The translations under genes were made by a program, and so were the position numbers. A stretch of DNA of 43,373 nucleotides, from IMG/VR virus record IMGVR_UViG_3300026302_000002, positions 1-43,373 of that record; one strand, 5' to 3'. Under the pieces are notes generated by a model. It was not told where the DNA came from, made no database searches, and saw only the letters and a program-made list of their open reading frames with translations. The DNA is from a virus. The stretch's first letter is position 1. Every line of letters starts with the position of its first letter. Shown piece after piece: positions 5,585 through 43,180 of the stretch.

Positions 5585-5866
5585 TTAGGCGGCCTTCGGC
5601 TGGTCGTCGGCTTCGACGATCTTCTGGTAGGGGTACTTGTCGGCGAACGGCTTGATGTGCTGGCCGAAGTGCTTGCCCTTCGACTCGCTGGCCAGGAAGG
5701 CGTCGTAGTCCTCCTGGGTCACGTTCGCGTAGTGGTAGAGCGAGCCCGGGCCGCGCTTGTCGCCGTAGCCGCGCGTGAAGCGGATCGCCAGCGTCTGGCT
5801 CTCCGGGTCGTAGCCGATGGAGTGGATCTGGGACGAATCGACGTCCTGCAGGCGCACGATGGTCAT
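5585..5866 (-). CDS. KTSC-domain protein
   Basis: SSQIHSIGYDPESQTLAIRF...LYHYANVTQEDYDAFLASESKGKHF matches the KTSC (PF13619) pattern. An AGGAA Shine-Dalgarno lies upstream. Confidence 0.7.
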   Translation of the reverse strand: MTIVRLQDVDSSQIHSIGYDPESQTLAIRFTRGYGDKRGPGSLYHYANVTQEDYDAFLASESKGKHFGQHIKPFADKYPYQKIVEADDQPKAA

Positions 5867-10835: not shown

Positions 10836-11005
10836 AACCCGACCCCGCCCAGAAGTTCGCCGAGTGCGCCGAGCTCTCCAGGCACAACCCCGGCCTGACC
10901 GATGTAGAGCGACGAGAGTTCTCCGCCAGCGTGGCCAGGCAGCGGGCAGAGGATGATCGGCGCCGGCAGCCGTCTCCGCAGCTCGAGCTGGGGGAGGCTG
11001 CGTAG
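10832..11005 (+). CDS. Small hypothetical protein (57 aa)
   Basis: ATGA overlap with the upstream stop at 10832-10835. It is an internal Met of the shadow track ORF 10331..11005. Confidence 0.5.
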   Translation: MKPDPAQKFAECAELSRHNPGLTDVERREFSASVARQRAEDDRRRQPSPQLELGEAA

Positions 11006-11826
11006 TGGCCAGAATCAGGACCATCAAGCCCGAGCTGGGCGCCCATGAAGGGCTCTTCGACCTGGAGCTGGAGACTGGTCTGCCGATCCGATTCGCCTGG
11101 TGCATGTTGTTCACCGTGGCGGACCGCGAGGGCCGCTTCCAGTGGCGCCCGCGCACCCTGAAGGCGCAGATTCTTCCCCATGACCTGGTTGAGTTCTCAC
11201 GCGTGCTCGACGCGTGGGTCACGCGTGGATTCGTCGTGAAGTATCGCGTCGGTGACGAGTGGTTCGGGTGGATTCCGACCTTCACCAAGCACCAGGTCAT
11301 CAACAACCGCGAGGCTGCATCCGACCTGCCATCGATTGAGCAGGCAGACGAGGTTTTCAGTAGCACAAACAACGACTTCGACGCGTCAGGCACGCGTCAG
11401 GCACGCGTCGATGACGCGTCATGCACGCGTGAAGTGCATGCACAAGTGGAAGGGAAGGGAAGGGAAGGGAAGGAAGGGAAGGAAAACACCTCTTCGGCTG
11501 CGCCGGCTTCGCCGACTCCGCCAGCCGACCTCGTCCCCACTGAGCCTCCGGTGCTGACCTTCCTGCTGAACGACGGTAGCGAGTTCGGGATCAGCCAGCA
11601 GCAGGCTCTGGAGTTCCGGGAGCTGTTCCCGGCCATCGACGTGATGCAGGAGCTGCGGTCGCTGAAGGCCTGGTGCATCGGCAACCGCCAGAACCGGAAA
11701 ACGCGCGCCGGGGCCATGAAGTTCGTGACCGGCTGGCTGTCCAGGGCACAGAACCGAGCGCCAACGGTGAACGGCGGGTCCGGCCCGCAGGCTGACCCGA
11801 ACCGGCTGCCGAGGCTGCGGGCATGA
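11005..11826 (+). CDS. Replication initiator (lambda O-like role) containing the origin repeats
   Basis: It lies immediately upstream of dnaB. Phased iterons and a polypurine tract sit in the middle of the gene. The two conserved-looking ends are joined by a low-complexity linker. Confidence 0.6.
   Translation: MARIRTIKPELGAHEGLFDLELETGLPIRFAWCMLFTVADREGRFQWRPRTLKAQILPHDLVEFSRVLDAWVTRGFVVKYRVGDEWFGWIPTFTKHQVINNREAASDLPSIEQADEVFSSTNNDFDASGTRQARVDDASCTREVHAQVEGKGREGKEGKENTSSAAPASPTPPADLVPTEPPVLTFLLNDGSEFGISQQQALEFRELFPAIDVMQELRSLKAWCIGNRQNRKTRAGAMKFVTGWLSRAQNRAPTVNGGSGPQADPNRLPRLRA
11381..11486. repeat. Putative origin: five ACGCGT-containing 11-bp iterons (11381-11435) followed by a 39-nt all-purine GGAAG-type tract (11448-11486)
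   Basis: ACGCGT occurs at 11381, 11392, 11403, 11414 and 11425, an exact 11-bp phase. The purine tract is ggaagggaagggaagggaagggaaggaagggaaggaaaa. Confidence 0.7.
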
Positions 11827-13669: not shown

Positions 13670-14575
13670 ATGGATGCTATCGACATGTTCGCCGGCAGCG
13701 GTGGATTCAGTGAAGGCGCGCGACAGGCCGGCTGCAATGTGGTGTGGGCGGGCAATCACTGGCGCGAGGCCTGCGACGTGTACCAGCTCAATCACGGAAT
13801 CAAGCCCGCGTGCGATGACATGCACCTGACGAAGTGGGAGACCGTGCCGAAGCATGACCTGTTGCTGGCCAGTTGGGCCTGCCAAGGGTTCACGCCGGCC
13901 CAGGGCGGCAGGAAGCCGCAGACGGACACGCAACGCGCCACAGCCTGGGCCGTAGTTTCCGCGATCGAGTATCACCGCCCATACGCCTTCATCGGCGAGA
14001 ACGTGCCGGCTTTCGCCAAGTGGGAGCTTTATCAGGTCTGGTGCGAGGCAATGACCCGGCTTGGCTATGCGCTGAACATCATGGTGCTGGACTCTGCCGA
14101 CTTCGGGGTGCCGCAGAACCGAGTGCGCCTGATCATTGTCGGGACGCGCAGCAAGCACCCGGTAGAGCTGAAGCTGGAGAAGGACGCGCACGTGCCGGCT
14201 TCAAGCTTCATCGAATTCAACACCGGCCGGTGGTCGCCGATCCAGCGCAAGGGCAGGGCAGAAAACACGGTGAACCGGATCGCAAACGGGCGTCGGCAGC
14301 ACGGCGACCGGTTCCTGACTGCGTTCTACGGCGCGGAGAAGGGCGGCCGCAGCCTGCACCGCCCCATCGGAACAATCGTGACCCGCGACCGCTGGGCCGT
14401 CATCGATGGCGACCGGATGCGAATGATCAATGTGAACGAAGCCCGGAAGGCGATGGGCTATCCGGACAGCTACATCCTGCCGAACAACTCGCGCGATGCG
14501 ATGCACATGCTGGGCAACGCGGTCACGCCGCCAAAGGCCAAGCGCGTCATCGAAGCGCTGAGGGAGGCCGCCTGA
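13670..14575 (+). CDS. dcm: DNA (cytosine-5) methyltransferase
   Basis: Motif I DMFAGSGGFSEG, motif IV region SWACQGFT (Ala in place of the usual Pro), motif VI GENV, motif VIII QNRVRL, motif X GNAVTPP. Confidence 0.85.
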   Translation: MDAIDMFAGSGGFSEGARQAGCNVVWAGNHWREACDVYQLNHGIKPACDDMHLTKWETVPKHDLLLASWACQGFTPAQGGRKPQTDTQRATAWAVVSAIEYHRPYAFIGENVPAFAKWELYQVWCEAMTRLGYALNIMVLDSADFGVPQNRVRLIIVGTRSKHPVELKLEKDAHVPASSFIEFNTGRWSPIQRKGRAENTVNRIANGRRQHGDRFLTAFYGAEKGGRSLHRPIGTIVTRDRWAVIDGDRMRMINVNEARKAMGYPDSYILPNNSRDAMHMLGNAVTPPKAKRVIEALREAA

Positions 14576-20957: not shown

Positions 20958-22642
20958 TGGGCTGGGACCTGTCGTGCCGGGACTGGTGGGATCGCCTCCA
21001 GTCCGGGCGATCGCTGGTCCCCGATCTGCCGCTGTGGGCGGCTGAGGGTGAGCGCGCGGTCCGGATCTTCAACAAGCTGCGCCTGGCCGACGTGCCGGGA
21101 ACGCCGACGATGGAGGAGGCCGGCGGCGAGTGGTTCAGGGACATCGTCCGGGCGATGTTCGGTTCGGTGAACCCGGAGACCCGGGAACGGATGATCCGGG
21201 AGCTGTTCGGCCTGGTCCCGAAGAAGAACAGCAAGACCACGGATGGGGCGCTGCTGATGGTCACGGCCCTGCTGATGAACCAGCGGCCGCGGGCCGGGTT
21301 CGTCATGACGGCGCCCGTGCAGGACGTGGCGCAGCTGGCGTTCGACGCTGCTGCAGGCGCGATCGACCTGGACCCGGTCCTGTCGAAAAAGTTCCACGTG
21401 CGGTACCACCTGAAGACGATCCTGCACCGGGAGACGAAGGCCGAGCTCGAGATCATGACCTTCGACCCGGCGGTACTCACGGGGCAGAAGATCAGCGGCG
21501 GGGCGCTCATCGACGAGCTGCACGTCTGCGCGAAGATGGCCAAGGCGCCCAAGGCGCTGCGGCAGATCCGCGGCGGCATGCTGCCGTTCCCCGAGTCGTT
21601 CCTCGCCTTCATCACGACGCAGTCGGACGAGCCGCCGGTGGGCGTGTTCGCCGAGGAGCTGGCCAAGGCGAGGGACATTCGCGACGGGAAGCGCGAGGGA
21701 GCGATGCTCCCGGTGCTGTTCGAGTTCCCCCGTGAGATCCAGGAGTCGACGGACCGGAAGTGGGAGAACCCGGCCCTGTGGCCGATGGTCACCCCGAACC
21801 TGGGCAAGTCGATCACGATCGAGCGACTGCAGGCCGACCACGCAGACGCGAAGGCGACCAGCGAGGCAGAGCTGCGGGTCTGGGCGTCGCAGCACCTGAA
21901 CATCCAGATCGGCCAGGCGCTGATGGCAGACGGGTGGGCCGGCGCAGACTTCTGGGCGGATGCCGGCGACGACACCCTGACGCTGGAAGCGCTGATCGAG
22001 CGCTCCGAGGTCGCGGTGGTCGGAATCGACGGCGGCGGGCTGGACGACCTGCTGGGCCTGGCGGTGCTGGGGCGCGAGCGTGCGACGCGGCGCTGGCTGC
22101 ACTGGTCCCACGCCTGGGCCCACGAGATCGTGCTGGAGCGCCGCAAGGCGATCGAGCCGAAGCTGCGCGAGCTGGAGTCGGCCGGCGACCTGTCGATCGT
22201 CGCTACCCCCGGTGAGGACGTCGCCGGCGTCGCCGAGGTGGTGCGCCGACTTGCGAAGGCTCGACTGCTGCCGGAGAAGCACGCGATCGGGGTCGATGCG
22301 GCCGGTATCGGTGCCGTCGTCGACGAGCTGACGCTACCCGGGCACGGCCTGACGATCGACCACATCGTGGCCGTCTCGCAGGGCTGGCGCCTCAACGGGG
22401 CGATCAAAACGACCGAGCGCGCGGTGGCCGGCGGCGACCTGGTGCACGGGTCGCAGCCGCTGATGGCCTGGGCAGTCGGCAACGCGAAGGTGGAGCCGAA
22501 GGGCAACGCCATCACGATCACGAAGCAGGCCAGCGGCACGGCGAAGATCGACCCGCTGATGGCCACGTTCAATGCGGTGTCGCTGATGGCCCTGAACCCG
22601 GCGGCGCAGAAGAAAAAGCTGGTCCTGGCAACCTTGGGGTGA
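20957..22642 (+). CDS. terL: Terminase large subunit (Terminase_1 / HK97-like)
   Basis: Walker A-like VPKKNSKT, Walker B ALIDELH, C-terminal nuclease region. 561 aa. Confidence 0.9.
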   Translation: MGWDLSCRDWWDRLQSGRSLVPDLPLWAAEGERAVRIFNKLRLADVPGTPTMEEAGGEWFRDIVRAMFGSVNPETRERMIRELFGLVPKKNSKTTDGALLMVTALLMNQRPRAGFVMTAPVQDVAQLAFDAAAGAIDLDPVLSKKFHVRYHLKTILHRETKAELEIMTFDPAVLTGQKISGGALIDELHVCAKMAKAPKALRQIRGGMLPFPESFLAFITTQSDEPPVGVFAEELAKARDIRDGKREGAMLPVLFEFPREIQESTDRKWENPALWPMVTPNLGKSITIERLQADHADAKATSEAELRVWASQHLNIQIGQALMADGWAGADFWADAGDDTLTLEALIERSEVAVVGIDGGGLDDLLGLAVLGRERATRRWLHWSHAWAHEIVLERRKAIEPKLRELESAGDLSIVATPGEDVAGVAEVVRRLAKARLLPEKHAIGVDAAGIGAVVDELTLPGHGLTIDHIVAVSQGWRLNGAIKTTERAVAGGDLVHGSQPLMAWAVGNAKVEPKGNAITITKQASGTAKIDPLMATFNAVSLMALNPAAQKKKLVLATLG

Positions 22643-22646
22643 CCGA

Positions 22647-23195
22647 ATGGAAATGAATCGCGCGTACAGCGTCCTGGACGTCAAGGGCGTCGACGAGGAG
22701 AAGCGGATCCTGACCGGGATCGCGTCCACGCCGAGCCCTGACCGGATGGACGACATCGTCGAGCCGAAGGGCGCGGTCTTCAAGCTGCCGCTGCCGTTCC
22801 TGTGGCAGCACCGGCACGACGCGCCGATCGGCCACGTGACCAAGGCGACCGTGAAGTCGTCCGGTATCGAGGTCGAGATCACCCTGGCCAAGATCGAAGA
22901 GCCCGGCATCCTCAAGGACCGCGTCGACGAGGCGTGGCAGTCGATCAAGCTCGGCCTGGTCCGCGGCCTGTCCATCGGCTTCGCCCCGATCGAGTCGGCC
23001 AACATCGACGGGTCGTGGGGTCGCCGGTTCCTGAAGTGGGACTGGCTGGAGCTGTCCGCGGTGACCGTGGCGGCGAACCAGGAAGCCACTATCCAGACCA
23101 TCAAGTCGATCGACGAAGAGTTCGTGCAGCGCGGCATCCGGCTGAAGTCGGCCCGCGACGAGCACATCAAGCGCGGCGCGGTGTCGCTGCGCTGA
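22647..23195 (+). CDS. HK97-family prohead protease
   Basis: The pattern ILTGIASTPSPDRMDDIV...LPFLWQHRHDAPIGH...LSIGF...ELSAVTVAANQEA is typical of S78/U35 proteases. Confidence 0.85.
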   Translation: MEMNRAYSVLDVKGVDEEKRILTGIASTPSPDRMDDIVEPKGAVFKLPLPFLWQHRHDAPIGHVTKATVKSSGIEVEITLAKIEEPGILKDRVDEAWQSIKLGLVRGLSIGFAPIESANIDGSWGRRFLKWDWLELSAVTVAANQEATIQTIKSIDEEFVQRGIRLKSARDEHIKRGAVSLR

Positions 23196-23289
23196 CCCAT
23201 TCCGGGGAGACCCGGCATCCATGCACGCAGGCAGTGCCCCCCGTGGAACGGGGGCCGTAGGGCTGCGCACACCCAAAGGAAAACGGAAC

Positions 23290-24690
23290 ATGAAGACCTA
23301 CGCCCAGCAGATCGCGGATCTCAACGCGACCCGCAAGAGCAAGGCCGATCGCATGAAGGAGATCCAGCAGAAGGCGGCCGACCAGTCGCGCACCCTGGAC
23401 ACCGGCGAGCAGGAAGAGTTCGACGCGCTGAAGGTCGAGATCGCCACGATCGACAAGAACATCGGCAATCTGCGCGACCTGGAGAAGATGGAGAAGGACG
23501 AGGCGGCCAACGCCGCGCCGGCCGATCCGTCCACCAGCGCCAACAAGCCCGTCACCGTCCAGCGCAGCACCGGCGGTGTCGAGGTCAAGGACACCACCTC
23601 GCTCAAGGACGGCATGGGCTTCGCCCGCGTCGCCCGCGTCAAGGCGGTGGCCTTCGTCAATCGCGTCGACCCGGTCGCTGTCGCCAAGGAACTCTACCCC
23701 GGCGATGAGCAGACCCTGAAGGCGATCGAGAAGGCGGCGGTTCCGGCGGCGACCACGCTGTCCACCACCTGGGCGAGCAATCTAATCAACGAAGGTGGCG
23801 CGCCGTTCGCCGACTTCGTCGAGTACAGTCGTGCCCGCTCGATCCTCGGCCAGATCGGCGACCGGCTGCGTCGTCTCCCGTTCGACACCGCGGTGCTGGT
23901 CCAGGGTTCGGCTGGCAGTGCGTCGTGGGTGAAGGAAGGAGAGGCCAAGCCGCTGACCCAGTGGACCTACACGCGCGCCAAGCTGGCTCCGCTGAAGGTT
24001 GCGGCCATCGCCGCGGCCACCAAGGAACTGCTGAAGCGGGCATCCGTTGCCGGCGACACCCTGATCCGCGACGAGCTGACCCGTGCGGTGAACAGCGCGA
24101 TCGACGGCACCTTCGTCAGTGACGCGGCCGCGGTGACCGACGAGGCGCCCGCGGGCATCCGCAACGGCGTGACGCCGGTCACCCTGACGGGCGACGGTAC
24201 GGTCGCGGGTATCCGCTGCGACATCGCCGCGATGTTGAAGGAGCTGGTGGGCGACAACCTTTCCGTGGCCGGTGCGTTATGGATCATGGCCGAGACCACC
24301 GCGATCGACCTGTCCCTGGCCACCAACGAAGTCGGAGCGCCGGCCTTCCCGGGCATCACCCCGACAGGCGGCACGCTGGCCGGTCTGCCGGTGTTCACCT
24401 CGCAGTACGTGGCGGACGAGACCGAAGGCCCGGTGGTGATGCTGATGAAGGGCGACGAGATCTTCCTCGGCGACGAGGATGGCATCGAGCTCTCCATGAG
24501 CGACCAGGCGTCGCTGCAGATGGACAACGCCCCGACCCAGAACAGCGTCACGCCGACTGGGACGTCGGTGGTTTCGATGTTCCAGACCAACAGCGTCGCG
24601 TTCCTGGTGGAGCGCTTCCTGAACTGGCAGAAGCGCCGTGCTTCGGCCGTGGTCTGGGCGCACGTCAACTGGAACCCGTGCGTGACCTGA
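23290..24690 (+). CDS. HK97-family major capsid protein with N-terminal coiled-coil (delta/scaffold) domain
   Basis: AAAGGAAAACGGAAC precedes the ATG at 23290. N-terminus KTYAQQIADLNATRKSKADRMKEIQ is followed by a capsid fold region. It sits after the protease. Confidence 0.9.
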   Translation: MKTYAQQIADLNATRKSKADRMKEIQQKAADQSRTLDTGEQEEFDALKVEIATIDKNIGNLRDLEKMEKDEAANAAPADPSTSANKPVTVQRSTGGVEVKDTTSLKDGMGFARVARVKAVAFVNRVDPVAVAKELYPGDEQTLKAIEKAAVPAATTLSTTWASNLINEGGAPFADFVEYSRARSILGQIGDRLRRLPFDTAVLVQGSAGSASWVKEGEAKPLTQWTYTRAKLAPLKVAAIAAATKELLKRASVAGDTLIRDELTRAVNSAIDGTFVSDAAAVTDEAPAGIRNGVTPVTLTGDGTVAGIRCDIAAMLKELVGDNLSVAGALWIMAETTAIDLSLATNEVGAPAFPGITPTGGTLAGLPVFTSQYVADETEGPVVMLMKGDEIFLGDEDGIELSMSDQASLQMDNAPTQNSVTPTGTSVVSMFQTNSVAFLVERFLNWQKRRASAVVWAHVNWNPCVT

Positions 24691-24708
24691 TCCATAGCCG
24701 CGTGAACC

Positions 24709-24734
24709 GAGGCGGGGGATTCGTCCCCCGCCTC
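24709..24734 (+). other. 11-bp perfect hairpin with a UUCG tetraloop just after the capsid gene
   Basis: GAGGCGGGGGA-TTCG-TCCCCCGCCTC. No U-tract follows, so it is more likely an RNA-stability or partial-termination element. Confidence 0.6.
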
Positions 24735-24750
24735 CTCTGAGGGGATCCCG

Positions 24751-24951
24751 ATGCTGATCCAGTACAAGACCACCGGCCACAAGCGCGAGGTGAAGCCCGA
24801 ATGCGGACGTCGCCTGGTGAAGGCGGGCATCGCCATGAAGGTGACGAAGCCGCGCGCGCTGAAGGCCAAGCCGATCCAGTCGGCCGGCGAGCCTTCCGAA
24901 CCCGCTGGTGCCGCGCAGTACGAGCGCCGCGACCTGAACACCGAGGGCTGA
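24751..24951 (+). CDS. Small hypothetical head-module protein
   Basis: 66 aa. GAGGGGA lies upstream. It sits between the capsid and portal genes. Confidence 0.55.
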   Translation: MLIQYKTTGHKREVKPECGRRLVKAGIAMKVTKPRALKAKPIQSAGEPSEPAGAAQYERRDLNTEG

Positions 24952-24952
24952 G

Positions 24953-26347
24953 ATGACCTTTACCGCCTCCGAACTCGCCGCCGAAGCCGGCGTGCGGAAG
25001 CATGGCGCGAGCTTCCTGCATACGGCCGCGAAGGCGCTGACGCCGGTAGCTAACTGGCGCCATGGCTGGCGGGTCATCTCCGAGGCCTTTGCCGGCGCGT
25101 GGCAGCGCAACATCGAGGAGAAGCGCGGCGACCTGACGTGCTACCCGACGCTGTACGCCTGCCTCAACCGAATTTCCCAGGACATCGGCAAGCTGCCGTT
25201 CCTGCTGAAGGAGAAGGACGCCAACGGCATCTGGAAGGTCAACACGACTAACACGGCCTTCTGGCCGGTGCTTCGCAAGCCGAACGGCTTCCAGACCCAG
25301 CAGCAGTTCCGCGAGGCGTGGATCCTGTCGAAGCTGTTGGAAGGCAACACCTACGTCCTGAAGGAGCGCGACAACCGCGGCGTGGTGGTCCGCCTGTATG
25401 TGCTCGACCCGTGCCGCGTGACGCCGCTGATCGCGGATTCCGGCGCCGTCTACTACCAGATCAACTACCCGACGGCGCAGAACCTGCTGCCGACGAATTA
25501 TCCGGCCGAGCAGCTGACCGTGCCGGCGCGCGACATCATCCACGACCGCCTGAACTGCTTCCACCACCAGCTGCTGGGCGTGCCGCCGCTTTGCGCCGCC
25601 GCACTGGCGGCCGGCAAGAACCTGAAAATCCTGCGCAACGCCTCAGCCTACTTCGCCAACGGTGCGAACCCGGGTGGCCTGCTGACCGCGCCGGCCGGCA
25701 TGAGTGAGGATGACTCCGACGCGGTCAAGAAGTACTGGCAGGAGGAGTTCCAGGGCGCCAACTCGGGCAAGGTCGCGCTGATCGGCGCGGACATGAAGTT
25801 CACCCCGTTTGCGTTCAAGTCCTCCGACTCCCAGCTGGTCGAACAGCTCCGCTACAGCGACGAGCAGATCTGCCAGCCGTTCGGCATCCCGCCATTCAAG
25901 ATCGGTATCGGGACGATCCCGGCAGGCATGAAGGTCGACGACCTGAACCAGCTGTACTACTCCGACGCGCTTCAGGGTCACATCGAGGCCATGGAGACGC
26001 TGCTGGACGAAGGCCTTGGCGTCACCACCAACACGGATGGGAACCTGCTTGGAATCGAGTGCGACCTGTGGCCGCTGCTACGCATGGACGCCGGCAAGCA
26101 GGCCGAGATCGAGACGAAGCTGACCGGAGGCGGCGTCAAGACGCCGAACGAGGCGCGGCTGGCCTTCGAGCTTGATCCCCTGGATGGCGGCGACACCGTC
26201 TACATGCAGCAGCAGGACTTCCCGCTCGACCAGGTCCGAAAGAACCGGATCGAACCGGCAGCAGAGCCGACCCCGCCAGAGGACGACGAGCCTCTGAGCG
26301 ATGACGAGATGGACGACGAGATGGAAGCCGAGGGCCAGCAGGCATGA
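24953..26347 (+). CDS. Portal protein (HK97 family)
   Basis: 464 aa. Typical portal segments (NGIWKV..., GNTYVLKERD..., LYVLDP, ...GANPGGLLT...), with an acidic C-terminus. Confidence 0.85.
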   Translation: MTFTASELAAEAGVRKHGASFLHTAAKALTPVANWRHGWRVISEAFAGAWQRNIEEKRGDLTCYPTLYACLNRISQDIGKLPFLLKEKDANGIWKVNTTNTAFWPVLRKPNGFQTQQQFREAWILSKLLEGNTYVLKERDNRGVVVRLYVLDPCRVTPLIADSGAVYYQINYPTAQNLLPTNYPAEQLTVPARDIIHDRLNCFHHQLLGVPPLCAAALAAGKNLKILRNASAYFANGANPGGLLTAPAGMSEDDSDAVKKYWQEEFQGANSGKVALIGADMKFTPFAFKSSDSQLVEQLRYSDEQICQPFGIPPFKIGIGTIPAGMKVDDLNQLYYSDALQGHIEAMETLLDEGLGVTTNTDGNLLGIECDLWPLLRMDAGKQAEIETKLTGGGVKTPNEARLAFELDPLDGGDTVYMQQQDFPLDQVRKNRIEPAAEPTPPEDDEPLSDDEMDDEMEAEGQQA

Positions 26348-27198
26348 CCAAGGACACCCAGCGGGCGATCCTCCGCGCCTGCGCCAGGTACATCCAGCGT
26401 GGCCTGGCGCCGATCCTCAAGCGCCTGGACGCCGTCGAGAAGGCGGCCGGCGACATTGCCACGAAGGGCGACGTCGAGACGGTGAAGCGTTCGCTGGAGC
26501 AGCGCGTCGAAGGCGTGACCTTGCTGCCAGGCCCCCCCGGTCCGGCGGGCAAGGACGCCGAGCCGGTCATGGTCGCCGACGTCGTCAAGGAACTGCTGGC
26601 CACCGACGCTCTGGCGCCGCTGCTGGACCTGATGGTGGCCGAAGCAGTGGCCAAGCACCTCGAGGCCAATCCGATCCCCGCCGGCCGCGACGGCGCCGAC
26701 GGTGCGCCGGGTCCGCAAGGCCAGCCCGGGGAGAAGGGCGCCGACGGCAAGGACGGTGCCGACGGCGTCGGCCTGGCCAGCGCACTGATCGACCGCGGCG
26801 GCGAGCTGGTCGTGACGCTCACCAACGGCACACAGAAGGCGCTGGGGGTGGTCGTCGGCAAAGACGGACGGGACGGCGCCGACGGCCTGAGCTTCGAGGA
26901 CTTCACCGGCGAGTACGTCGCGGAGCGCGGGTTCGTCCTGCGCGCCACCCGCGGCGCGGTGGCCCGGGAGTTCGTGCTGCCGTACATGAAGCACCTGGGC
27001 TTCTGGTCGGAGGGCAAGGCAGCCAAGGCCGGCGAATCGGCCACCCATGACGGAGCGCTGTGGATCGCCAAGCGCGACACCAGCGCCAAGCCCTGCCTGG
27101 AGAACGGGGAGGACTGGATCCTCGCCGCCCGCAAGGGACGTGATGGCAAGGACGGGCGGAACGGGGTCGACAAGACCGCTCCGGTGAGGGTCGGCTGA
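26344..27198 (+). CDS. Collagen-like (Gly-X-Y) repeat protein, probable head or neck fibre
   Basis: Four G-X-Y runs, including a 10-triplet run GRDGADGAPGPQGQPGEKGADGKDGADGVG. ATGA coupling to the portal gene. Confidence 0.7.
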   Translation: MTKDTQRAILRACARYIQRGLAPILKRLDAVEKAAGDIATKGDVETVKRSLEQRVEGVTLLPGPPGPAGKDAEPVMVADVVKELLATDALAPLLDLMVAEAVAKHLEANPIPAGRDGADGAPGPQGQPGEKGADGKDGADGVGLASALIDRGGELVVTLTNGTQKALGVVVGKDGRDGADGLSFEDFTGEYVAERGFVLRATRGAVAREFVLPYMKHLGFWSEGKAAKAGESATHDGALWIAKRDTSAKPCLENGEDWILAARKGRDGKDGRNGVDKTAPVRVG

Positions 27199-27596
27199 TG
27201 GTCGCGCTGGTCACCGCCGAGCAGGCTCGCTTCCAGCTGCGCGTCGACGCCGGCACCCCGGACGACGACTGGATCGCTCTGTGGATCCCGATCGTCTCTG
27301 CCGCCGTGGCGAGCTGGCTGAAGGATGCCTGGCGCCTGTACGAGCCGGAGGTCGATTCGGGTGGTGTCGTCGTCACGGACAGCAACGGCGACCCGGTGGC
27401 GGCGCTGGACAGCAGCCTGGAGCCGATCGTGCGCGCCGAGGTGCAGGGCGCGGTGCTGGTCGAGCTGGCCTCGCAGTACCGCTTCCGGGAGGGCGAGGGC
27501 GACAACGTCGTTCCGGGCGACGCCGGGCACGGGTACGTGCTTTCGAAGGGCGCCACGGCGCTGCTGGTGCCGCTGCGGCGGTCGACGGTGCGCTGA
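27198..27596 (+). CDS. Head-tail connector (gp6-like)
   Basis: Position, size, and an N-terminus LVTAEQARFQLRVD... typical of Phage_connect_1 proteins. Confidence 0.65.
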   Translation: MVALVTAEQARFQLRVDAGTPDDDWIALWIPIVSAAVASWLKDAWRLYEPEVDSGGVVVTDSNGDPVAALDSSLEPIVRAEVQGAVLVELASQYRFREGEGDNVVPGDAGHGYVLSKGATALLVPLRRSTVR

Positions 27597-27937
27597 TGAG
27601 CGGGGTCGCCGCGGGCAAGCTCCGGCATTGGGTCCAGCTGCAGCGCCAGCAGAGCGCGCAGGATCCGAACACGGGGGAGATGGTCAACACATGGGTGCGC
27701 CTGGCCGACGTATGGGCTGACGTGGCGCCGGCATCGGGCCGGGAGTTCATCGCCGCGGCCGCCGAGCAGTCGGAGGTGCGCGGGCGGATCACCATCCGCT
27801 ACCGCGACGACGTCGACGCGACCATGCGCGTGGTCCACCGCGGCAAGACATACGCCATCCTGGCGGCCCTGGAGGATGCGGAGTCCGGTCTGGAGCACCT
27901 GACGCTGATGGTCGCGGAGGGAGTGCGGATCACCTGA
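27596..27937 (+). CDS. Head-closure / head-tail adaptor (SPP1 gp16-like)
   Basis: KLRHWVQLQRQQSAQDPNTGEMVNTWVRLADVWADVAPASGREF...ITIRYR is a typical PF05521 pattern. Confidence 0.75.
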   Translation: MSGVAAGKLRHWVQLQRQQSAQDPNTGEMVNTWVRLADVWADVAPASGREFIAAAAEQSEVRGRITIRYRDDVDATMRVVHRGKTYAILAALEDAESGLEHLTLMVAEGVRIT

Positions 27938-28521
27938 TGGGCACGTGGGCACTGCTGGCGCCGGGACCGAGCGCGTCCGCGGCGCTGGCCAGGCGCGTTT
28001 CGCATCTGCCGCTGGGCGCCGTTGGCTGTGCCTGGGAGCTGGCGCCGGCCGCGACCTTCATCGCCGCCGGCGACGCGGCGTGGTGGAGGGCGTACCCGGC
28101 TGCGCGGGCGGCGACGGTTCCGAAGTACTGCATGGGGACGCCACCCCGCGGGATCGAGCAGGTGCGGATTCCGGACCTGGGCTGGTACGTCGTCAACAGC
28201 GGCGTGCTCGCGCTGGAATGCGCCAAGCGTGCCGGCGCCACGCGGATCCTGCTGCTCGGCTTCGACATGCACGGCTCGCACTTCTTCGGCGAGTACACGA
28301 ACGGCCTGAGCAACACCGCGGAATCGAAGCGGCGCATGCACAAGACGCAGTACGCGCGCTGGGCACGCGCCAACAAGGCGATCGAGGTCATCAACTGCAC
28401 GCCCGGTTCGGCGCTGCACTGCTTTCCCAAGGCGAGGTTGGAAGATGTTGCAGACGTTTTCCGGGCGGAAGCCCAGCCAGAACGAGCAGGAGCTGCGGGG
28501 GTTCATTGCGCTGCTGCGTGA
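27937..28521 (+). CDS. DUF115/MptE-like (Maf-type) putative glycosyl/nonulosonate transferase
   Basis: N-terminal ALLAPGPSA (GPS motif) and VVNSGVLALECAKRAGATRILLLGFDMHGSH. The last 77 nt overlap the next gene, where GC3 favours the downstream frame. Confidence 0.5.
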   Translation: MGTWALLAPGPSASAALARRVSHLPLGAVGCAWELAPAATFIAAGDAAWWRAYPAARAATVPKYCMGTPPRGIEQVRIPDLGWYVVNSGVLALECAKRAGATRILLLGFDMHGSHFFGEYTNGLSNTAESKRRMHKTQYARWARANKAIEVINCTPGSALHCFPKARLEDVADVFRAEAQPERAGAAGVHCAAA

Positions 28522-29020
28522 GCGCGGCGTCACCCGCTACCTGGAGATCGGCGCAAGGCACGGCGATACCTTCCACGAGGTGATGCTGTCGCTTCCGGAG
28601 GGAAGCACTGGCGTGGCCGTTGACCTCCCCGGTGGACTCTGGGGAACCGGCAAGTCGCGCCAGCACCTCCTGAAGGCGGTGGCCGACCTCAACCGGCGCG
28701 GCTACAAGTGCAGCGCCCTGTTCGGGGACTCGCAGACGGACGCGACCAAGCGGCTGATCGTGGGCCGCGGGCCGTTCGACGCGATCCTGATCGATGGCGA
28801 CCACACTCTGGCCGGCGTGTCGCGGGACTGGGCGCACTACGGCCGGATGGCGCCGTTGGTTGCCTTCCACGACATCGTCGGCGCGGGCCAGCGGGAGAAG
28901 GTGCACGGCCGGGAGGTCGAGGTGCCGATCCTCTGGGAGCGGCTGAAGGGTCAGCACCAGGTGGCGGAGTTCGTGGCCGAAGGCTCGGCCATGGGCATCG
29001 GCGTAGTGCTGGCGAGCTGA
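28445..29020 (+). CDS. Class I SAM-dependent methyltransferase (CmcI / Methyltransf_24-like)
   Basis: Motif I YLEIGARHGDT, acidic VAVDLPGG, and ILIDGDHTLAGVSRDW. Confidence 0.7.
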   Translation: MLQTFSGRKPSQNEQELRGFIALLRERGVTRYLEIGARHGDTFHEVMLSLPEGSTGVAVDLPGGLWGTGKSRQHLLKAVADLNRRGYKCSALFGDSQTDATKRLIVGRGPFDAILIDGDHTLAGVSRDWAHYGRMAPLVAFHDIVGAGQREKVHGREVEVPILWERLKGQHQVAEFVAEGSAMGIGVVLAS

Positions 29021-29023
29021 CCG

Positions 29024-29935
29024 GTGCACTTCGACCTGAGTCAGCGGGCGCCGCACCAGATTGCGCACTGGCAGGCGGTTACGGAAGGGCTGCGCCGACA
29101 TGGCGTTCTGGACCAGTACCCGGGCGTGGTCGTGTGCTGGGGATGGCGCACGGGTGCCGTGCATCGCAAGCGCGGGCGCGATGTGCTGGTGCTCGAGCGC
29201 GGCTATCTCGGTGAACGGTTCAACTGGTCGAGCATCGGCTGGAACGGGCTCAATGGCCTGGCGACGTTTCCGGACTACCCCACGGACTTCGGGGCTCGGT
29301 TCCGCCGCCTGGGTGTTCAGCTGGAACCGTGGCGTCCTGCCGGCGAATACGTGCTGCTGGTCGGACAGGTGCACGGCGACGCCGCGCTGCAGGGCCGGAA
29401 CCTGGGTCCGTGGTATGCGCAGACGGCGAAGGCCGCGGCGGCCCAGTACGGGCTGCCAGTGAGGTTCAGGCCGCATCCGCTGGAGGTGCGCCGCACCGGA
29501 GTGGTCCGGCGCGTGCCAGGGACGGAGCATGATGCCGGGCCGCTGGTCGATGCCCTGGCGCGTGCAGCGGTCGTGGTGACCTGGAACAGCAACACCGGCG
29601 TCGACGCGCTCCTGGCCGGCAAGCCTGTCGTGGCGCTGGGCGATGGCGCCATGGCGTCGCCGTTGGCGGCGCGGGAGCTGGGCGGCCAGTGCAACCCGGA
29701 CCGCGAGGCCTGGGCGCATGCGCTGGCGTGGAAGCAGTGGACGCTGGAGGAGATCCGGTCCGGCGAGGCGTTGGTCGGAGTCGTGGAGGACCTGAAGGAT
29801 GGACGTTACGGTCAAGGTGGAGGGTCTGGCGGAAGCGGAGCGGAAGCTGAAGCTACTGCCCGATCGCGTCGGCCGCCGGGCCCTGCGGCGCGCGCTGAGG
29901 CGTGGCGCCAACGTCATTCGCAACGGGGCGCGTGA
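29024..29935 (+). CDS. KpsC/KpsS-like (Capsule_synth family) putative glycosyltransferase
   Basis: YVLLVGQVHGDAAL ... VRFRPHPLE ... AAVVVTWNSNTGVDALLAGKPVVALGDGA. GTG start. The last 137 nt overlap the gp10-like gene. Confidence 0.55.
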   Translation: MHFDLSQRAPHQIAHWQAVTEGLRRHGVLDQYPGVVVCWGWRTGAVHRKRGRDVLVLERGYLGERFNWSSIGWNGLNGLATFPDYPTDFGARFRRLGVQLEPWRPAGEYVLLVGQVHGDAALQGRNLGPWYAQTAKAAAAQYGLPVRFRPHPLEVRRTGVVRRVPGTEHDAGPLVDALARAAVVVTWNSNTGVDALLAGKPVVALGDGAMASPLAARELGGQCNPDREAWAHALAWKQWTLEEIRSGEALVGVVEDLKDGRYGQGGGSGGSGAEAEATARSRRPPGPAARAEAWRQRHSQRGA

Positions 29936-30275
29936 GAACTTCAAGCGGCTGGACGATCCCGGGACGGGGGAGAACATCGCGAGGAACGTCGTGGTCCAGG
30001 GCATGAGCGCCAAGCGCGAGCGCTCTGTGGGAGGCGTAGGCATGCGTGTCGGCGTGCTCGGAGGCTCCAAGTCCAAGACAGGGAGCGCGGCCACAGGCGG
30101 AAAAGGGAATCCGGGTGGCGACACCTGGTACTGGCGCCTGCTGGAGTTCGGAACCTCGACCATCGCGGCCAGGGCGCCAATGCGGAAAGCCATGGCAGCC
30201 CAGGCCATGGGTGCCTACGACGCCTTCGCCAATGCGGCCGAAGGCGAAATCGACAAGGAACTGGGGAAGCTCTGA
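29799..30275 (+). CDS. HK97 gp10-family tail-completion / neck protein
   Basis: VKVEGLAEAERKLKLLPDRVGRRALRRALRRGANVIRNGAREN is typical of PF04883. Confidence 0.75.
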   Translation: MDVTVKVEGLAEAERKLKLLPDRVGRRALRRALRRGANVIRNGARENFKRLDDPGTGENIARNVVVQGMSAKRERSVGGVGMRVGVLGGSKSKTGSAATGGKGNPGGDTWYWRLLEFGTSTIAARAPMRKAMAAQAMGAYDAFANAAEGEIDKELGKL

Positions 30276-30666: not shown

Positions 30667-30715
30667 CAACCCGAGCACTGCATCCCGCCAGGCCACGGCG
30701 GGGGACAGACCACCA

Positions 30716-30739
30716 CCCCGCGCTGCGGGGTTTTTTGTT
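30716..30739 (+). terminator. Intrinsic terminator inside the late operon, just upstream of the tail tube gene
   Basis: CCCCGC-GCT-GCGGGG followed by TTTTTTGTT. A second hairpin CCCGCC-N7-GGCGGG lies at 30685-30703. Confidence 0.7.
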
Positions 30740-30768: not shown

Positions 30769-31245
30769 ATGAAGACCCAAGGCACCAACCTGTACGGCAT
30801 CGACCCCGATACCGGCGAACTTCTCGAAGTCGATTGCCCGACGAGCATCGACGGCATCGATTCGAGCATCTCCCAGCTCGAAACGACCTGCCTCAACTCC
30901 CCGGCGCGCACGTACGAAGCCGGCCTCGAAGAGCCGGGCACCGCAACCTTCGGGATCAACATCGATCCGAAGAATCCCAACCATCGGCGCCTGCACCAGC
31001 TGAAGCGCGCCGGGAAGACGATGAAGTGGGCGGTCGGCTGGGCGGAGGCGCCCGACGTGGACCCGACCATCGAAACCGACAGCGACGGCGACTACGTGTT
31101 CGTTCCGAATCCGGCGCGCAGCTGGCTGTTCTTCGAAGGCTTCATGAACTCCTTCCCCTTCAGCTTCGCGCTGAACTCGCAGGTCAGCTCGACCATCGGC
31201 ATCCAGGTCTCTGGCGAGATCGAGATGGTCTCGGCCGGCACCTAA
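30769..31245 (+). CDS. Major tail tube protein
   Basis: 158 aa. GAGAGGAAACGCA precedes the ATG. It lies before the chaperone and tape-measure genes. Confidence 0.75.
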   Translation: MKTQGTNLYGIDPDTGELLEVDCPTSIDGIDSSISQLETTCLNSPARTYEAGLEEPGTATFGINIDPKNPNHRRLHQLKRAGKTMKWAVGWAEAPDVDPTIETDSDGDYVFVPNPARSWLFFEGFMNSFPFSFALNSQVSSTIGIQVSGEIEMVSAGT

Positions 31246-41812: not shown

Positions 41813-42964
41813 CTACAGCCGGCCGGCCAGGTAGCCAGCCCAGTCGCCCATGAGCGCCCGGCGCTTGTCCAGTAGGTCACCTCGCCGGTAGGCCGCCTCG
41901 GCCCGGTTGCGGATCGCGTGGGCCAGGGCCATCTCCACCACCTCCCCGGCATGGTCCGTTGTTTCTGCGGCCCAGTCGCGGAAGCTGCTGCGGAACCCGT
42001 GGACGGTGTAGGGGTGGCCAAGCCCCTTTGGCGGCTGGCGTTGCAGCAGGTAGAGCATCGCGTTCTCCGTGAGCCGGAAGGGCGGCTGATCCCGCGGCAG
42101 TGGCCGCAGGATCGCCACGGCGGCCTCTGACAGCGGCACGACATGGGGACGCCCGCCCTTCATCCGCCCGGCAGGGATCGACCACAGCGCGGCTTCAAGA
42201 TCGAACTCGGCCCACTGCGCCCCGGTGACCTCGGCCGTCCGTGCGGCGGTCAGGATGGCGAACCGCAGCGCCCGGCGGGTGCGTCCGTCCCGATCGGCCA
42301 GGCGGGCCATGAGCGCGGGGACGGCGGCGTAGGGCATGGCCGCGTGGTGGTCGGGCCTGGACACCTTCGACGGCTTGGGCAGCAGGTGATCCAGGTGGCC
42401 GCGCCAGCGTGCCGGGTTGTCGCCGGCCCGTAGCCCGTGGACCCGCGCCCAGTCCAGCACCCGCTCGATTCGCGCCCGAACCCGGCTGGCCGTCTCCGTC
42501 TTGGTGGCCCAGATCGGCCGCAGGCAGGCCATTACCGCGATGGTGTCCACGCCGGCCACCGGCATCGCCCTGTCCGGGCCGTAGTCCCGCAGCGACTGCG
42601 CCCATTGGTCGGCCTGTGCGCCGTTCTTCCAGCCCGGCCGCAGGCTTTCGATCAGCGCGTCTGCGCACTCCCCGAACGTGGCCCCTGCCGCCTGTGCGGC
42701 CCTGCGCGCCGCGATGGGATCATCCCCGCCCGCCAGTACCCGCCGCTGGGCGAGCGCCGCGCCTCGGGCATCCTGGAGCGTCACGACGGCCGCCGACCCA
42801 AGCCCCATTTCCCGGCGCGTCCCGCGAAGCTGGTAGCGCAGTACCCATGACTTCGAACCGGTAGGTCCGACCAGCAGGTACAGGCCGCCGCCGTCTGCGT
42901 GATAGCCTGCTGCCGTCGCCGCTTGGACTGCCCGCGCCGATAGCCGATTGATCGGCCGTGCCAT
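41813..42964 (-). CDS. int: Tyrosine integrase, P4-type (DUF4102 arm-binding domain plus catalytic domain)
   Basis: MARPINRLSARAV...GGGLYLLVGPTGSKSWVLRY, then catalytic R (LTAARTAEV), HGFRSSFRDW, and AYRRGD. The track ORF extends to 43156, but that N-terminal extension looks non-coding. Confidence 0.9.
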   Translation of the reverse strand: MARPINRLSARAVQAATAAGYHADGGGLYLLVGPTGSKSWVLRYQLRGTRREMGLGSAAVVTLQDARGAALAQRRVLAGGDDPIAARRAAQAAGATFGECADALIESLRPGWKNGAQADQWAQSLRDYGPDRAMPVAGVDTIAVMACLRPIWATKTETASRVRARIERVLDWARVHGLRAGDNPARWRGHLDHLLPKPSKVSRPDHHAAMPYAAVPALMARLADRDGRTRRALRFAILTAARTAEVTGAQWAEFDLEAALWSIPAGRMKGGRPHVVPLSEAAVAILRPLPRDQPPFRLTENAMLYLLQRQPPKGLGHPYTVHGFRSSFRDWAAETTDHAGEVVEMALAHAIRNRAEAAYRRGDLLDKRRALMGDWAGYLAGRL

Positions 42965-43054
42965 GCCCCACCATCCGCCCCATGCTTGGGGATGCGATTC
43001 AGAGACCGGGAATGATACGGGTGTGGAGTCGCACCCGCTGATCCTGCTGGATTT

Positions 43055-43083
43055 TGCGACGGCGTGCGACGGCGTGCGACGGG
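43055..43083. repeat. Tandem decamer TGCGACGGCG x2.9 in the xis-int intergenic region
   Basis: tgcgacggcg tgcgacggcg tgcgacggg, read directly. Confidence 0.8.
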
Positions 43084-43180
43084 AGAAACGGCCTCTCACT
43101 CCGCCAGATTGGCGGCGAAACGTAGGCGGGGCAAGGGTTTCAGGCCGATCAACCAACCCGCCCCATGCTTCGCCCCATGT

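Follow-up and report, generated by a model that had tools for sequence, protein, structure and literature searches.

A recurrent gene island of predicted glycan-modifying enzymes among the neck genes of a temperate HK97-like siphophage

The viral sequence analysed here (43,373 nucleotides of IMG/VR record IMGVR_UViG_3300026302_000002, the whole of which is called the window) is that of a temperate HK97-like siphophage, and three of its genes, G1, G2 and G3, are one version of a widespread, variable gene island. The best reading of this island, to which we give a probability of about 0.45, is that it decorates the particle with a small acidic sugar chain that is methylated.

Results

Layout and borders of the island

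The genes concerned, all on the + strand, are as follows.

26344..27198, +: collagen-like protein X, directly after the portal gene (PF01391 Collagen, E 5e-4)
27596..27937, +: Hc1, head completion / head closure, upstream border of the island (PF05521 Phage_HCP, E 3.8e-28)
27937..28521, +: G1, putative CMP-sugar glycosyltransferase, 194 aa (phrog_4603, E 1.6e-30)
28445..29020, +: G2, predicted class I SAM-dependent methyltransferase, 191 aa, Methyltransf_24 (CmcI / O-methyltransferase) type
29024..29935, +: G3, single-module retaining beta-Kdo-transferase-like glycosyltransferase, 303 aa (PF05159)
29799..30275, +: HK97 gp10-like neck/tail component, downstream border of the island (PF04883, E 2.1e-7)

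A preliminary description of this DNA had placed three co-oriented genes between Hc1 and the HK97 gp10-like gene. The open reading frames and the Pfam matches of both borders agree with this, and all the motifs that it quoted were found in the G1, G2 and G3 translations. The start codon of G1 overlaps the stop codon of Hc1 (TGATG). The three are real genes and not chance ORFs, since homologs of every one number in the hundreds, falling into no fewer than 639 clusters (G1), 905 clusters (G2) and 127 clusters (G3). Two antisense ORFs, 27930-28430 and 28391-30208, were rejected as genes and are shadow ORFs.

The overlaps of 77 nt between G1 and G2 and of 137 nt between G3 and the gp10-like gene were confirmed, and third-position GC (GC3) within them favours the downstream frame, as had been described (0.38 for the G1 tail versus 0.88, and 0.48 for the G3 tail versus 0.82). 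These overlaps are non-conserved read-through tails. G1 has a core of about 175 aa, and its last 12–25 residues, which overlap G2, are not conserved; the conserved body of G3 covers 29024-29797, and its residues 259-303 are a lineage-specific read-through tail running over gp10. The overlaps had been taken as a sign of a recent insertion, but they do not indicate one, because the conserved bodies end at about 28485 (G1) and 29797 (G3, the end of the family HMM match) and the rest is tail. The GC3 of the gene bodies (0.85–0.90 for G1 to G3) equals that of the neighbouring genes, and the cassette is old and widespread, which also speaks against recent arrival.

No sigma-70-like promoter or terminator-like site was found within 27937-29935. 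The sequence thus agrees with the earlier proposal that they are expressed with the virion genes. Among the 20 largest non-structural ORFs of the window we found neither a transporter nor a gene for sugar-nucleotide synthesis, the latter in line with the preliminary description. The island is accompanied by no flippase, no transporter and no enzyme for priming a lipid carrier. A moron or lysogenic-conversion cassette was considered and rejected: the genes possess no promoter- or terminator-like site of their own, their starts and stops overlap, and their GC3 is that of their neighbours.

G3 resembles retaining beta-Kdo transferases

Sequence comparison and an AF2 model strongly support the prediction that G3 folds like a retaining beta-Kdo transferase and carries the invariant catalytic motifs of these enzymes, and the earlier assignment of G3 to the KpsC/KpsS type was borne out. 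G3 matched PF05159 with 26.4 bits (cutoff 20; E 5.8e-6) over 37 residues only (aa 171-207), and 28 of 59 members of its family matched the same profile. Its model (pLDDT 92; 58-72 in the tail) retrieved from the PDB with Foldseek only WbbB, KpsC or KrkA at ranks 1 to 27 (E 1.6e-8 to 1.5e-5, probability 1.0), with TM-scores of 0.43–0.53. By phmmer, G3 was aligned to KpsC 6mgc (E 0.01) with D119 opposite the catalytic D160; this column holds D in 6mgc and N in the D160N variant 8fuw. Eight residues are invariant in the 59 sequences, namely E58, Y61, Q115, D119, R149, H151, P152 and S189. Q115 and D119 form a QxxxD motif (Q115-V-H-G-D119), and R149-P-H151-P152, which is aligned to the HP motif of KpsC, forms a (K/R)xHP motif. 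These are, respectively, the nucleophile motif and the CMP-binding motif of retaining beta-Kdo transferases (PMC12887879). Retaining beta-Kdo transferases use CMP-beta-Kdo.

G3 thus shares a double-Rossmann fold, as modelled, and both motifs with KpsC/KpsS (GT107), the N-terminal module of WbbB (GT99) and KrkA (GT140). It differs from KpsC, WbbB and KrkA in being a single module of about 255 aa that is encoded by a phage among neck genes; genes for the export of capsule or O-antigen and a pathway to a lipid acceptor are absent from its surroundings. Its sequence identity to characterised beta-Kdo transferases is only 15–20%, and its activity is predicted from the sequence and the model.

G2 is a predicted O-methyltransferase

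G2 is strongly supported by its sequence as a probable SAM-dependent methyltransferase of the O-methyltransferase clan. Its assignment to Methyltransf_24 in the preliminary description is supported at the family level: the window protein scored 23.2 bits against PF13578 (E 1.3e-4, profile positions 1-104 of 105), where the cutoff is 26.3, and many homologs with 65–83% identity carry a precomputed PF13578 match, some of them under the name 'predicted O-methyltransferase YrrM'. The residues E34-x-G36-x-R38-x-G40-D41, D60, D117-x-D119-H120 and H142-D143 are invariant in 44 sequences. They include SAM motif I, ExGxxxG (E34-I-G36-A-R-H-G40), and the acidic residue at the end of strand 2 (D60). Against the PDB, the family profile gave weak matches to cation-dependent O-methyltransferases (E 0.014). 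Since homologs cover 98–100% of the protein, the ATG at 28445 is the conserved start of G2.

G1 has a predicted enzyme-like Rossmann core

G1 had been described as similar to DUF115/MptE proteins and Maf transferases. This likeness was recovered in its PHROG, phrog_4603, annotated 'alpha-2,3-sialyltransferase', and in its best TM-scores, but not in Pfam or at a firm E-value. The window protein had no Pfam match, the gathering score of PF01973 (34.6 bits) not being reached, and no sequence-level match for G1 was found in the PDB. PF01973 matches below threshold (E 1e-3 or worse) were seen in 4 of 54 family members, and they recur in divergent members in the same region of the profile (17 bits for PAJU2 ORF010, 19.3 bits for phiNP and 15 bits for P0071). 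When the AF2 model of G1 (pLDDT 87) was searched with Foldseek, the best TM-score was to Maf 5mu5 (TMq 0.60, E 4.3e-3, probability 1.0), and the sialyltransferase Cst-II 2x61 was also matched (TMq 0.54, E 0.02, probability about 1). No match reached E 1e-3, and thiamin pyrophosphokinase came first by E-value with a similar score.

The invariant residues of G1 are A-P-G-P-S at 8-12, D46, WW49-50, S88-G89, G108-x-D110, H115 and H135, and the P-G-P-S loop comes directly after the first strand (2-7). In Cst-II, a G-x-G-P-S loop near the N-terminus follows strand 1 and binds the nucleotide, and a His is catalytic. Taken together, the model weakly suggests that G1 is an enzyme-like Rossmann protein of the Maf/Cst-II/MptE-like superfold; its possible likeness to Maf, Cst-I/II (GT42) and PF01973 lies in the best TM-scores, the G-P-S loop, the recurrent PF01973 matches below threshold and the sialyltransferase-annotated PHROG. 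Compared with Maf, G1 is reduced to a core of about 175 aa and lacks the flanking acceptor-binding domains. Characterised members of the superfold use CMP-activated nonulosonic acids.

The cassette recurs inside virion modules

Relatives of G3 are encoded on 292 IMG/VR contigs and close relatives of G1 on 132. The order G1-G2-G3 was found in 56 of 91 loci, and G1 occurs with G3 in most of the remaining ones. At the Hc1/gp10 junction the same cassette is present in relatives that share only 57–89% identity in Hc1, and it also occurs in many other phage lineages. A prophage of Bosea minatitlanensis LMG 26207 likewise has G1-G2-G3. Three proteins (P0068, P0070 and P0071) are fusions that contain both a G3 domain and a G1-like one.

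Over 62 non-redundant loci, the cassette was preceded by Phage_HCP in 24 and followed by the HK97 gp10-like gene in 25, and all Pfam-identified flanking genes were head, neck or tail genes or a further methyltransferase. The junction between Hc1 and gp10 is the commonest site (24-25 loci). Other sites of the cassette lie upstream of the gp6-like connector gene or of the tape measure gene, downstream of the tail tube or capsid gene, and between the portal and Mu-F genes. In two phages, the podovirus MW202713 and Citrobacter phiNP, relatives adjoin terminase genes instead of lying among structural genes. A synteny survey of the kind proposed in the preliminary description showed that the Hc1/gp10 junction is occupied in some relatives and empty in others, and in many of the latter the gp10-like gene follows Hc1 after only 14–26 nt. 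These observations strongly support the view that G1, G2 and G3 travel together as a unit inside virion modules.

Host assignments are mostly to the Alpha- and Gammaproteobacteria. Bacteria of these two classes make CMP-Kdo.

Sister islands share G1 and exchange its partners

The composition of sister islands was counted over 52 distinct G1-seeded loci. G1 was accompanied by GT2 and MT11 in 15 of these, by a D3-orf12-like gene and MT23 in 15, by G2 and G3 in seven, and by a GT-A-like gene and an unknown gene in four; G1 stood alone in four. G1 is the constant member, and sister islands pair it with other glycosyltransferases and methyltransferases.

Two such islands are those of the Pseudomonas phages D3 (orf7, orf12 and orf13) and PAJU2 (ORF010-012). 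Their G1 homologs are D3 orf7 (36% identity, E 2e-20) and PAJU2 ORF010 (hhalign 99.5%). Like the window, both phages carry the island at the Hc1/gp10 junction with the architecture of G1, a second enzyme and a SAM methyltransferase, and in PAJU2 the order of the head and neck genes is also that of the window. However, the partner genes are not homologous to G2 and G3: D3 orf12 is unrelated to G3 (hhalign probability 0.3%), and D3 orf13 is a Methyltransf_23 protein while G2 is of Methyltransf_24. In D3, moreover, Ad1 lies downstream of the G1 homolog, and the junction also holds a KilA-N gene. No characterisation of the D3 or PAJU2 island genes was found in the literature searched.

PAJU2 ORF010 bears one of only four unqualified 'structural protein' labels in its record, the others being capsid, tail tube and tail protein. 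This label would place the G1 family physically at the particle, so the earlier statement that none of the three is a normal virion-assembly gene is not strictly correct.

In the podovirus MW202713, a G3 relative, a methyltransferase and a TibC-like glycosyltransferase lie close together within a single block of late genes next to the terminase. TibC and Aah, the autotransporter heptosyltransferases, are cytoplasmic protein O-glycosyltransferases. The window has no TibC-like gene, and the link is by co-location only.

Candidate acceptors

The collagen-like protein X, which also matches C-terminal parts of the portal PHROGs 1289 and 2271, was found with G1 in 82 of 92 island-bearing loci versus 4 of 64 island-less loci. 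It was absent from all 32 loci with the cassette at other sites. X is accordingly a candidate acceptor and not a required partner. No feature of the tail tube protein was found to track the presence of the island.

Discussion

In the best reading, the three genes are a late-expressed island that builds a glycan and is linked translationally to the neck genes. Late in infection the enzymes would use SAM and host CMP-Kdo, or CMP-nonulosonic acids where the host makes them, and would act in the cytoplasm, where virions are assembled. G1 may place the first sugar on a virion protein, G3 may add beta-Kdo to that sugar, and G2 may O-methylate and so cap the glycan. Because sister islands swap G3 and G2 for other enzymes, the glycan would vary between phages, as would be expected for a surface-exposed decoration. 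The same logic is known from Maf enzymes, which glycosylate a self-assembling structural protein in the cytoplasm. We know of no report of Kdo as a protein-linked sugar, which speaks against this reading. So do the loss of X wherever the cassette occupies another site, the lack of a tail tube feature that follows the island, and the terminase-adjacent relatives in MW202713 and phiNP.

Virion glycosylation has a precedent among mycobacteriophages. According to Freeman et al. (2023), as cited in PMC12363180 and PMC12619734, Che8, Corndog and Myrna use glycosyltransferases of their own to glycosylate subunits of the capsid and the tail tube. In those phages the glycosyltransferases are likewise expressed with the virion genes, but the glycan has been demonstrated there and is proposed here, and the hosts are Actinobacteria there and Proteobacteria here. 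The enzyme families differ as well: CMP-ulosonic-acid chemistry is not known from those phages, and the window encodes Kdo-transferase-like and Maf-like enzymes whose function we infer.

All characterised structural relatives of G3 (KpsC, KpsS, WbbB and KrkA) act at the cytoplasmic face of the membrane, and their acceptors are lipid-anchored or are polysaccharides, not proteins. This counts against a virion target and favours the idea that the island modifies a lipid or glycan of the host envelope late in infection, for example by attaching first beta-Kdo and then methyl to the LPS core, to lipid A precursors or to phosphatidylglycerol. Such a change could hide receptors on cell debris and on cells undergoing lysis, or modify the envelope ahead of lysis; in a variant of the idea, the enzymes do no more than deplete CMP-Kdo. 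The modification of LPS by D3 and other serotype-converting phages lends it a precedent. The sequestration of LPS sugars has also been raised as a possible phage strategy (Pyle et al.). Yet the island has no membrane segment, flippase, transporter or lipid-carrier enzyme, and lysogenic-conversion genes are usually separate and have their own promoters, whereas this island is start/stop-coupled to neck genes. Its repeated embedding between structural genes, at several positions, is moreover hard to explain by late timing alone, and we consider an envelope target rather unlikely.

The PAJU2 label bears on another explanation: if it reflects an abundant virion protein, G1 might be structural and not catalytic. 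G1 would then be primarily a structural or decoration protein, such as a Rossmann-like neck or head accessory, with G2 and G3 as independent passengers at a permissive junction. G1 lies among neck genes, often occurs alone, and is weakly similar to enzymes by E-value, all of which fit this explanation. Its invariant residues nevertheless form an enzyme-like pattern, with the P-G-P-S loop following strand 1, S-G where a helix begins, and G-x-D...H, and this pattern is similar to that of CMP-sugar enzymes with this fold. G1 is moreover nearly always found with a methyltransferase and a second glycosyltransferase, and G1-like domains are fused to G3. A primarily structural G1 with passenger enzymes seems improbable to us. 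Still less probable, to the point of being very doubtful, is that the island glycosylates phage DNA, for instance with Kdo on a hydroxymethylated base, as an anti-restriction hypermodification. Phage glycosyltransferases that add Kdo-like sugars to 5hmC have been described (bioRxiv 10.1101/2023.12.21.572611) and give a precedent, and the window encodes a C5 cytosine methyltransferase at 13670-14575. But that gene is about 13 kb from the island, which is embedded in structural modules; the 20 largest non-structural ORFs yielded no TET/JBP-like dioxygenase; and G3 matches envelope-glycan Kdo transferases, not T4 beta-GT-like DNA glycosyltransferases.

Extending virion glycosylation beyond the window, we tentatively suggest, with more doubt than confidence, that many temperate siphophages of Proteobacteria, including D3 and PAJU2, bear short methyl-capped acidic glycans made by a hypervariable, G1-anchored island at the neck junction. 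In the G1-G2-G3 version the sugar would be Kdo from the host LPS precursor pool, the first protein-linked Kdo, and G1 may stay on the virion.

Virion glycosylation has been shown for a few mycobacteriophages, in which it shields particles from antibodies. If Kdo-type sugars are indeed placed on Gram-negative phages, this would be a new class of protein glycosylation and a new use for the essential CMP-Kdo pool, and it would point to a variable surface trait with possible effects on the stability, adsorption, immune recognition and therapeutic use of phages. The idea is directly testable in culturable phages, as D3 and PAJU2, which infect Pseudomonas aeruginosa, have a sister island. The result for G1 supports the PHROG label 'alpha-2,3-sialyltransferase' weakly and at the fold level only. 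Even if the target is the host envelope, the analysis gives a function class to a recurrent 'hypothetical' gene block in phage structural modules.

Genome and late gene order

With a G+C content of about 67%, the window represents a temperate, HK97-like siphophage or prophage. It has an integrase gene and, upstream, a recombination and replication region, and the terminase, head and tail genes are all on the plus strand.

Gene order around the island in the window
20957-22642, plus: large terminase
22647-23195, plus: prohead protease
23221-24690, plus: major capsid protein
24953-26347, plus: portal
26344-27198, plus: collagen-like protein (X)
27198-27596, plus: head-tail adaptor (Ad1)
27596-27937, plus: head completion protein (Hc1; PF05521, E 3.8e-28)
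27937-28521, 28445-29020 and 29024-29935, plus: G1, G2 and G3, the three-gene cassette between Hc1 and the HK97 gp10-like gene
29799-30275, plus: HK97 gp10-like (PF04883)
after gp10-like, plus: tail terminator, tail tube (30769-31245), chaperone and tape measure, in this order
41813-43156, minus: integrase

At 20957-26347 the head genes follow an unusual order in which the portal comes later than the capsid: terminase, protease, capsid, a 66-aa ORF and portal. The protease and the capsid are separate genes, and their counterpart in PAJU2 ORF003 and phrog_617 is a single fused protease-capsid. The gene of X, which contains a G-X-Y run, lies directly 3′ of the portal gene, and two "portal protein" PHROGs, 1289 and 2271, match X in their C-terminal parts. 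Within the late operon, a strong hairpin resembling a terminator (stem of 7 bp, six of them G-C pairs, followed by a T-run) lies at 30715-30731 on the plus strand, between the tail terminator and the major tail gene.

Outside the late genes, ARAGORN identified a tRNA-Val with the anticodon AAC within the phage (17469-17542). This anticodon is uncommon in bacterial tRNA-Val. Also present are a C5 cytosine DNA methyltransferase (13670-14575; PF00145, E 8.6e-49) and, at 1759-2421 on the minus strand, an N6/N4 DNA methylase that has an HNH_3 domain. The window has at least three HNH_3 endonuclease domains (1759-2421, 4275-4766 and 15963-16556). In a close relative (L004), a homing-endonuclease gene of the GIY-YIG/NUMOD3 kind (10933-11565) separates the tail chaperone genes from the tape measure gene; the window has no counterpart at that place.

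The three genes and their overlaps

The three ORFs agree exactly with the preliminary description, in motifs and overlaps as well. A crude GC3-based gene caller favoured antisense ORFs at 27930-28430 and 28391-30208, which we judged to be shadow ORFs because the plus-strand proteins G1, G2 and G3 each have hundreds of homologs in a collection of 5.8 billion proteins.

The matches of the family HMMs end at about 28485 in G1 and at 29797 in G3, the latter two bases ahead of the ATG of the gp10-like gene. G3 homologs are mostly 255–270 aa long and terminate at the end of the conserved body, and the 46-residue C-terminal tail of G3 is modelled by AlphaFold with low confidence. As noted before, GC3 in the two overlaps favours the downstream frames (0.88 and 0.82) over the upstream ones (0.38 and 0.48). 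The overlaps are therefore read-through tails from late stop codons and not scars of a recent insertion. The proposal that the cassette was inserted recently was not borne out: the gene-body GC3 of the island (0.85–0.90) equals that of the capsid, portal and tape measure genes (0.88–0.89), the overlaps are non-conserved tails, and the cassette is common to diverged relatives. Base composition, as GC3, gives no pointer to a foreign origin of the island.

G3 resembles retaining beta-Kdo transferases

G3 scored above the curated cutoff for Capsule_synth (PF05159) in a match spanning only 37 residues, and a phmmer search against the PDB led to E. coli KpsC. Its AlphaFold model has high confidence (pLDDT 92), and the best 27 PDB matches of this model in Foldseek were the retaining beta-Kdo transferases WbbB/GT99, KpsC/GT107 and KrkA/GT140. 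Two motifs are conserved across these three families, QxxxD, whose Asp is the covalent nucleophile, and (K/R)xHP, which binds CMP (PMC12887879). Their counterparts in G3 are Q115-V-H-G-D119 and R149-P-H151-P152. The phmmer alignment pairs D119 with a position that is Asp in KpsC but Asn in its D160N variant (8fuw), and Q115, D119, R149, H151 and P152 are invariant among 59 diverse members of the G3 family. The KpsC/KpsS-type identity first suggested for G3 is thus upheld by profile, structure and motifs. Taken together, the predicted fold and the invariant motifs strongly support that G3 has the fold and catalytic apparatus of a CMP-Kdo-dependent retaining transferase, with putative activity.

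G3 matched no PHROG family, and a tblastn search against 50,697 phage records returned one distant match only, so G3 is almost absent from cultured phages. Structural relatives in BFVD are few and uncharacterised; they include proteins of Caulobacter phage CcrColossus and Tetraselmis virus 1. Nucleotide similarity of the window to isolated phages was limited to two short, irrelevant matches.

Identities of G2 and G1

G2 is a predicted class I SAM methyltransferase. Its assignment to Methyltransf_24 held for the family rather than for the window protein itself, which scored 23.2 bits, slightly below the cutoff of 26.3. Many homologs with 65–83% identity carry PF13578, some of them named "predicted O-methyltransferase YrrM". 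Motif I is invariant, as are the DxDH and HD motifs.

The DUF115/Maf-like relationship proposed for G1 received weak support. G1 matched phrog_4603, "alpha-2,3-sialyltransferase", over its full length (E 1.6e-30), and the structures closest to its model (pLDDT 87) were, with TM-scores of 0.60 and 0.54, the flagellin glycosyltransferase Maf and the sialyltransferase Cst-II. Divergent members of the family gave recurrent sub-threshold matches to one same region of PF01973 (MptE-like), and the A-P-G-P-S loop, directly after the first strand, is invariant. However, no Pfam match was obtained for G1, all Foldseek E values exceeded 1e-3, and sequence-level searches of the PDB with the single sequence or the family profile gave no matches. 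G1 is thus a likely, rather than an established, Maf/Cst-II-like CMP-sugar transferase, with putative function.

Distribution and insertion sites of the cassette

Relatives of G3 were found in 292 IMG/VR viral contigs and in 25 GTDB species genomes, mostly Alphaproteobacteria (Bosea, Mesorhizobium, Bauldia, Roseomonas, Filomicrobium and others) and also Halopseudomonas. G3-bearing contigs were also binned into Mycobacterium (L098), Opitutales, Phycisphaeraceae, Acidobacteriota and Planctomycetota MAGs (L098, L099, L101, L109 and L113). Misbinning may lie behind the Mycobacterium assignment in particular; an ORF with a run of 68 G-X-Y repeats is also present on L098. With our own family HMMs, the order G1-G2-G3 was found in 56 of 91 loci, and G1 accompanied G3 in most of the others.

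Genes bordering the cassette in 62 non-redundant loci, by Pfam
Upstream: head completion, 24 loci; other SAM methyltransferases, 11; tail tube, 6; capsid, 3; connector, 2; portal, 1
Downstream: HK97 gp10-like, 25 loci; gp6-like connector, 7; gp17 tail completion, 6; head completion, 3; tape measure, 2; tail tube, 2

The junction between Hc1 and gp10 is the favourite site of the cassette. Elsewhere, the cassette lies immediately upstream of the tape measure gene in a Bosea prophage, G1-G3 precedes the connector gene in another phage, and the portal/Mu-F interval of a phage with a Mu-like head holds three methyltransferases, G3 and a weak G1-like match (G1 HMM, E 7e-4). Bosea minatitlanensis LMG 26207 carries a G1-G2-G3 prophage on contig JAOAOS010000002.1, at about 263–280 kb. 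This range of flanks indicates that the cassette is mobile, yet always inside virion modules. A survey of the exact junction found it occupied in some relatives and empty in others; in many phages with a related Hc1 (45–58% identity), gp10 begins 14–26 nt after Hc1.

A family of islands anchored by G1

Loci retrieved with G1 (132 IMG/VR contigs) mostly have the arrangement Hc1-G1-[1.2–1.9 kb]-gp10.

Island content in 52 distinct G1-seeded loci
G1 + GT2 glycosyltransferase + Methyltransf_11/23 enzyme: 15 loci
G1 + D3-orf12-like protein + Methyltransf_23 enzyme: 15 loci
G1 + G2 + G3: 7 loci
G1 + GT-A-like protein + an unknown: 4 loci
G1 alone: 4 loci
Other mixtures: 7 loci

These islands repeatedly combine one constant small transferase with a second transferase of varying family and a methyltransferase. 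Judged from the sequences, such a combination follows the logic of a glycan that is short, variable and methyl-capped. The Pseudomonas phages D3 and PAJU2 have islands of the orf12/orf13 type. The head and neck gene order of PAJU2 is that of the window, and its G1 homolog, ORF010, directly follows Hc1 (hhalign 99.5%). Homology of D3 orf12 and orf13 to G3 and G2 was rejected (BLASTP E >1, hhalign probability 0.3%); they are partners by analogy. In D3, orf11 (L001, 6111-6611), a KilA-N/ORF11CD3 domain gene annotated as "transcriptional regulator", lies at the Hc1/gp10 junction before orf12 and orf13.

Two further arrangements were observed in isolated phages. In podovirus MW202713 (L002, 2165-6581), a late-gene block beside the terminase encodes a TibC-like glycosyltransferase, a methyltransferase and a PLP-dependent enzyme, along with a G3 relative that lacks annotation (4987-5592). 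The block is another variant of phage glycan islands. Citrobacter phage phiNP (L003, 5001-6055) has two tandem G1-family genes, one of them unannotated, between its lysis genes and terS, outside the structural module.

Proposed function and acceptor

The enzyme classes, with that of G1 a likely one, are shown or strongly supported. The same holds for the cassette travelling as one unit and for its place among the virion genes, to which it is coupled. In line with the earlier view that the island lacks a separate promoter, promoter-like and terminator-like sites are absent inside it, and the stop codon of Hc1 overlaps the start codon of G1 (TGATG). Likewise, the 20 largest non-structural ORFs of the window included no gene for sugar-nucleotide synthesis, and the substrates would be host CMP-Kdo and SAM. 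In the proposed pathway, initiation of the glycan would fall to G1, addition of beta-Kdo to G3 and methylation to G2. The absence of flippases, transporters and lipid-carrier enzymes would place the acceptor in the cytoplasm. By analogy with Maf acting on flagellin and with virion glycosylation in mycobacteriophages, a virion protein would be the most economical acceptor.

As to which protein this might be, the C-termini of the tail tube proteins are alike across island classes, with no C-terminal extension tracking the island. In this phage lineage X is encoded in 82 of 92 loci with a G1 island and in 4 of 64 island-less loci, a strong co-occurrence. We rejected it as the acceptor and regard the co-occurrence as a lineage effect, since all 32 loci that have the cassette elsewhere lack X.

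Modification of a host lipid or LPS acceptor by these enzymes is unlikely. Still less probable is that G1 has a structural role and that G2 and G3 are unrelated passengers. Both a caveat and a lead is PAJU2 ORF010 (AP009624, 7780-8349; L273, 4719-5288), which is annotated as "structural protein". In the first 30 kb of the PAJU2 record, which hold the virion genes, this unqualified label is shared with three others only (capsid, tail tube and ORF023), and the portal and tape measure are labelled "putative"; the rarity of the label suggests that ORF010 was detected in virions. In P0068, P0070 and P0071 (429–462 aa), a G3 domain is naturally fused to a divergent G1-like domain at the C terminus, which argues that both enzymes act in one pathway. 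DNA hypermodification was judged very unlikely, and the remaining probability belongs to functions outside those considered here.

Phage-encoded virion glycosylation is already known as a type of system. Our search of the literature for phage Kps, Kdo or Maf systems, for a sialyltransferase among head-tail genes and for glycosylated virions of Gram-negative phages found nothing relevant. An island of Kdo-transferase-like and Maf-like enzymes in phages of Gram-negative hosts, whose function is putative, would be a new form of virion glycosylation, and so would the family of variable islands anchored by G1 at the neck junction.
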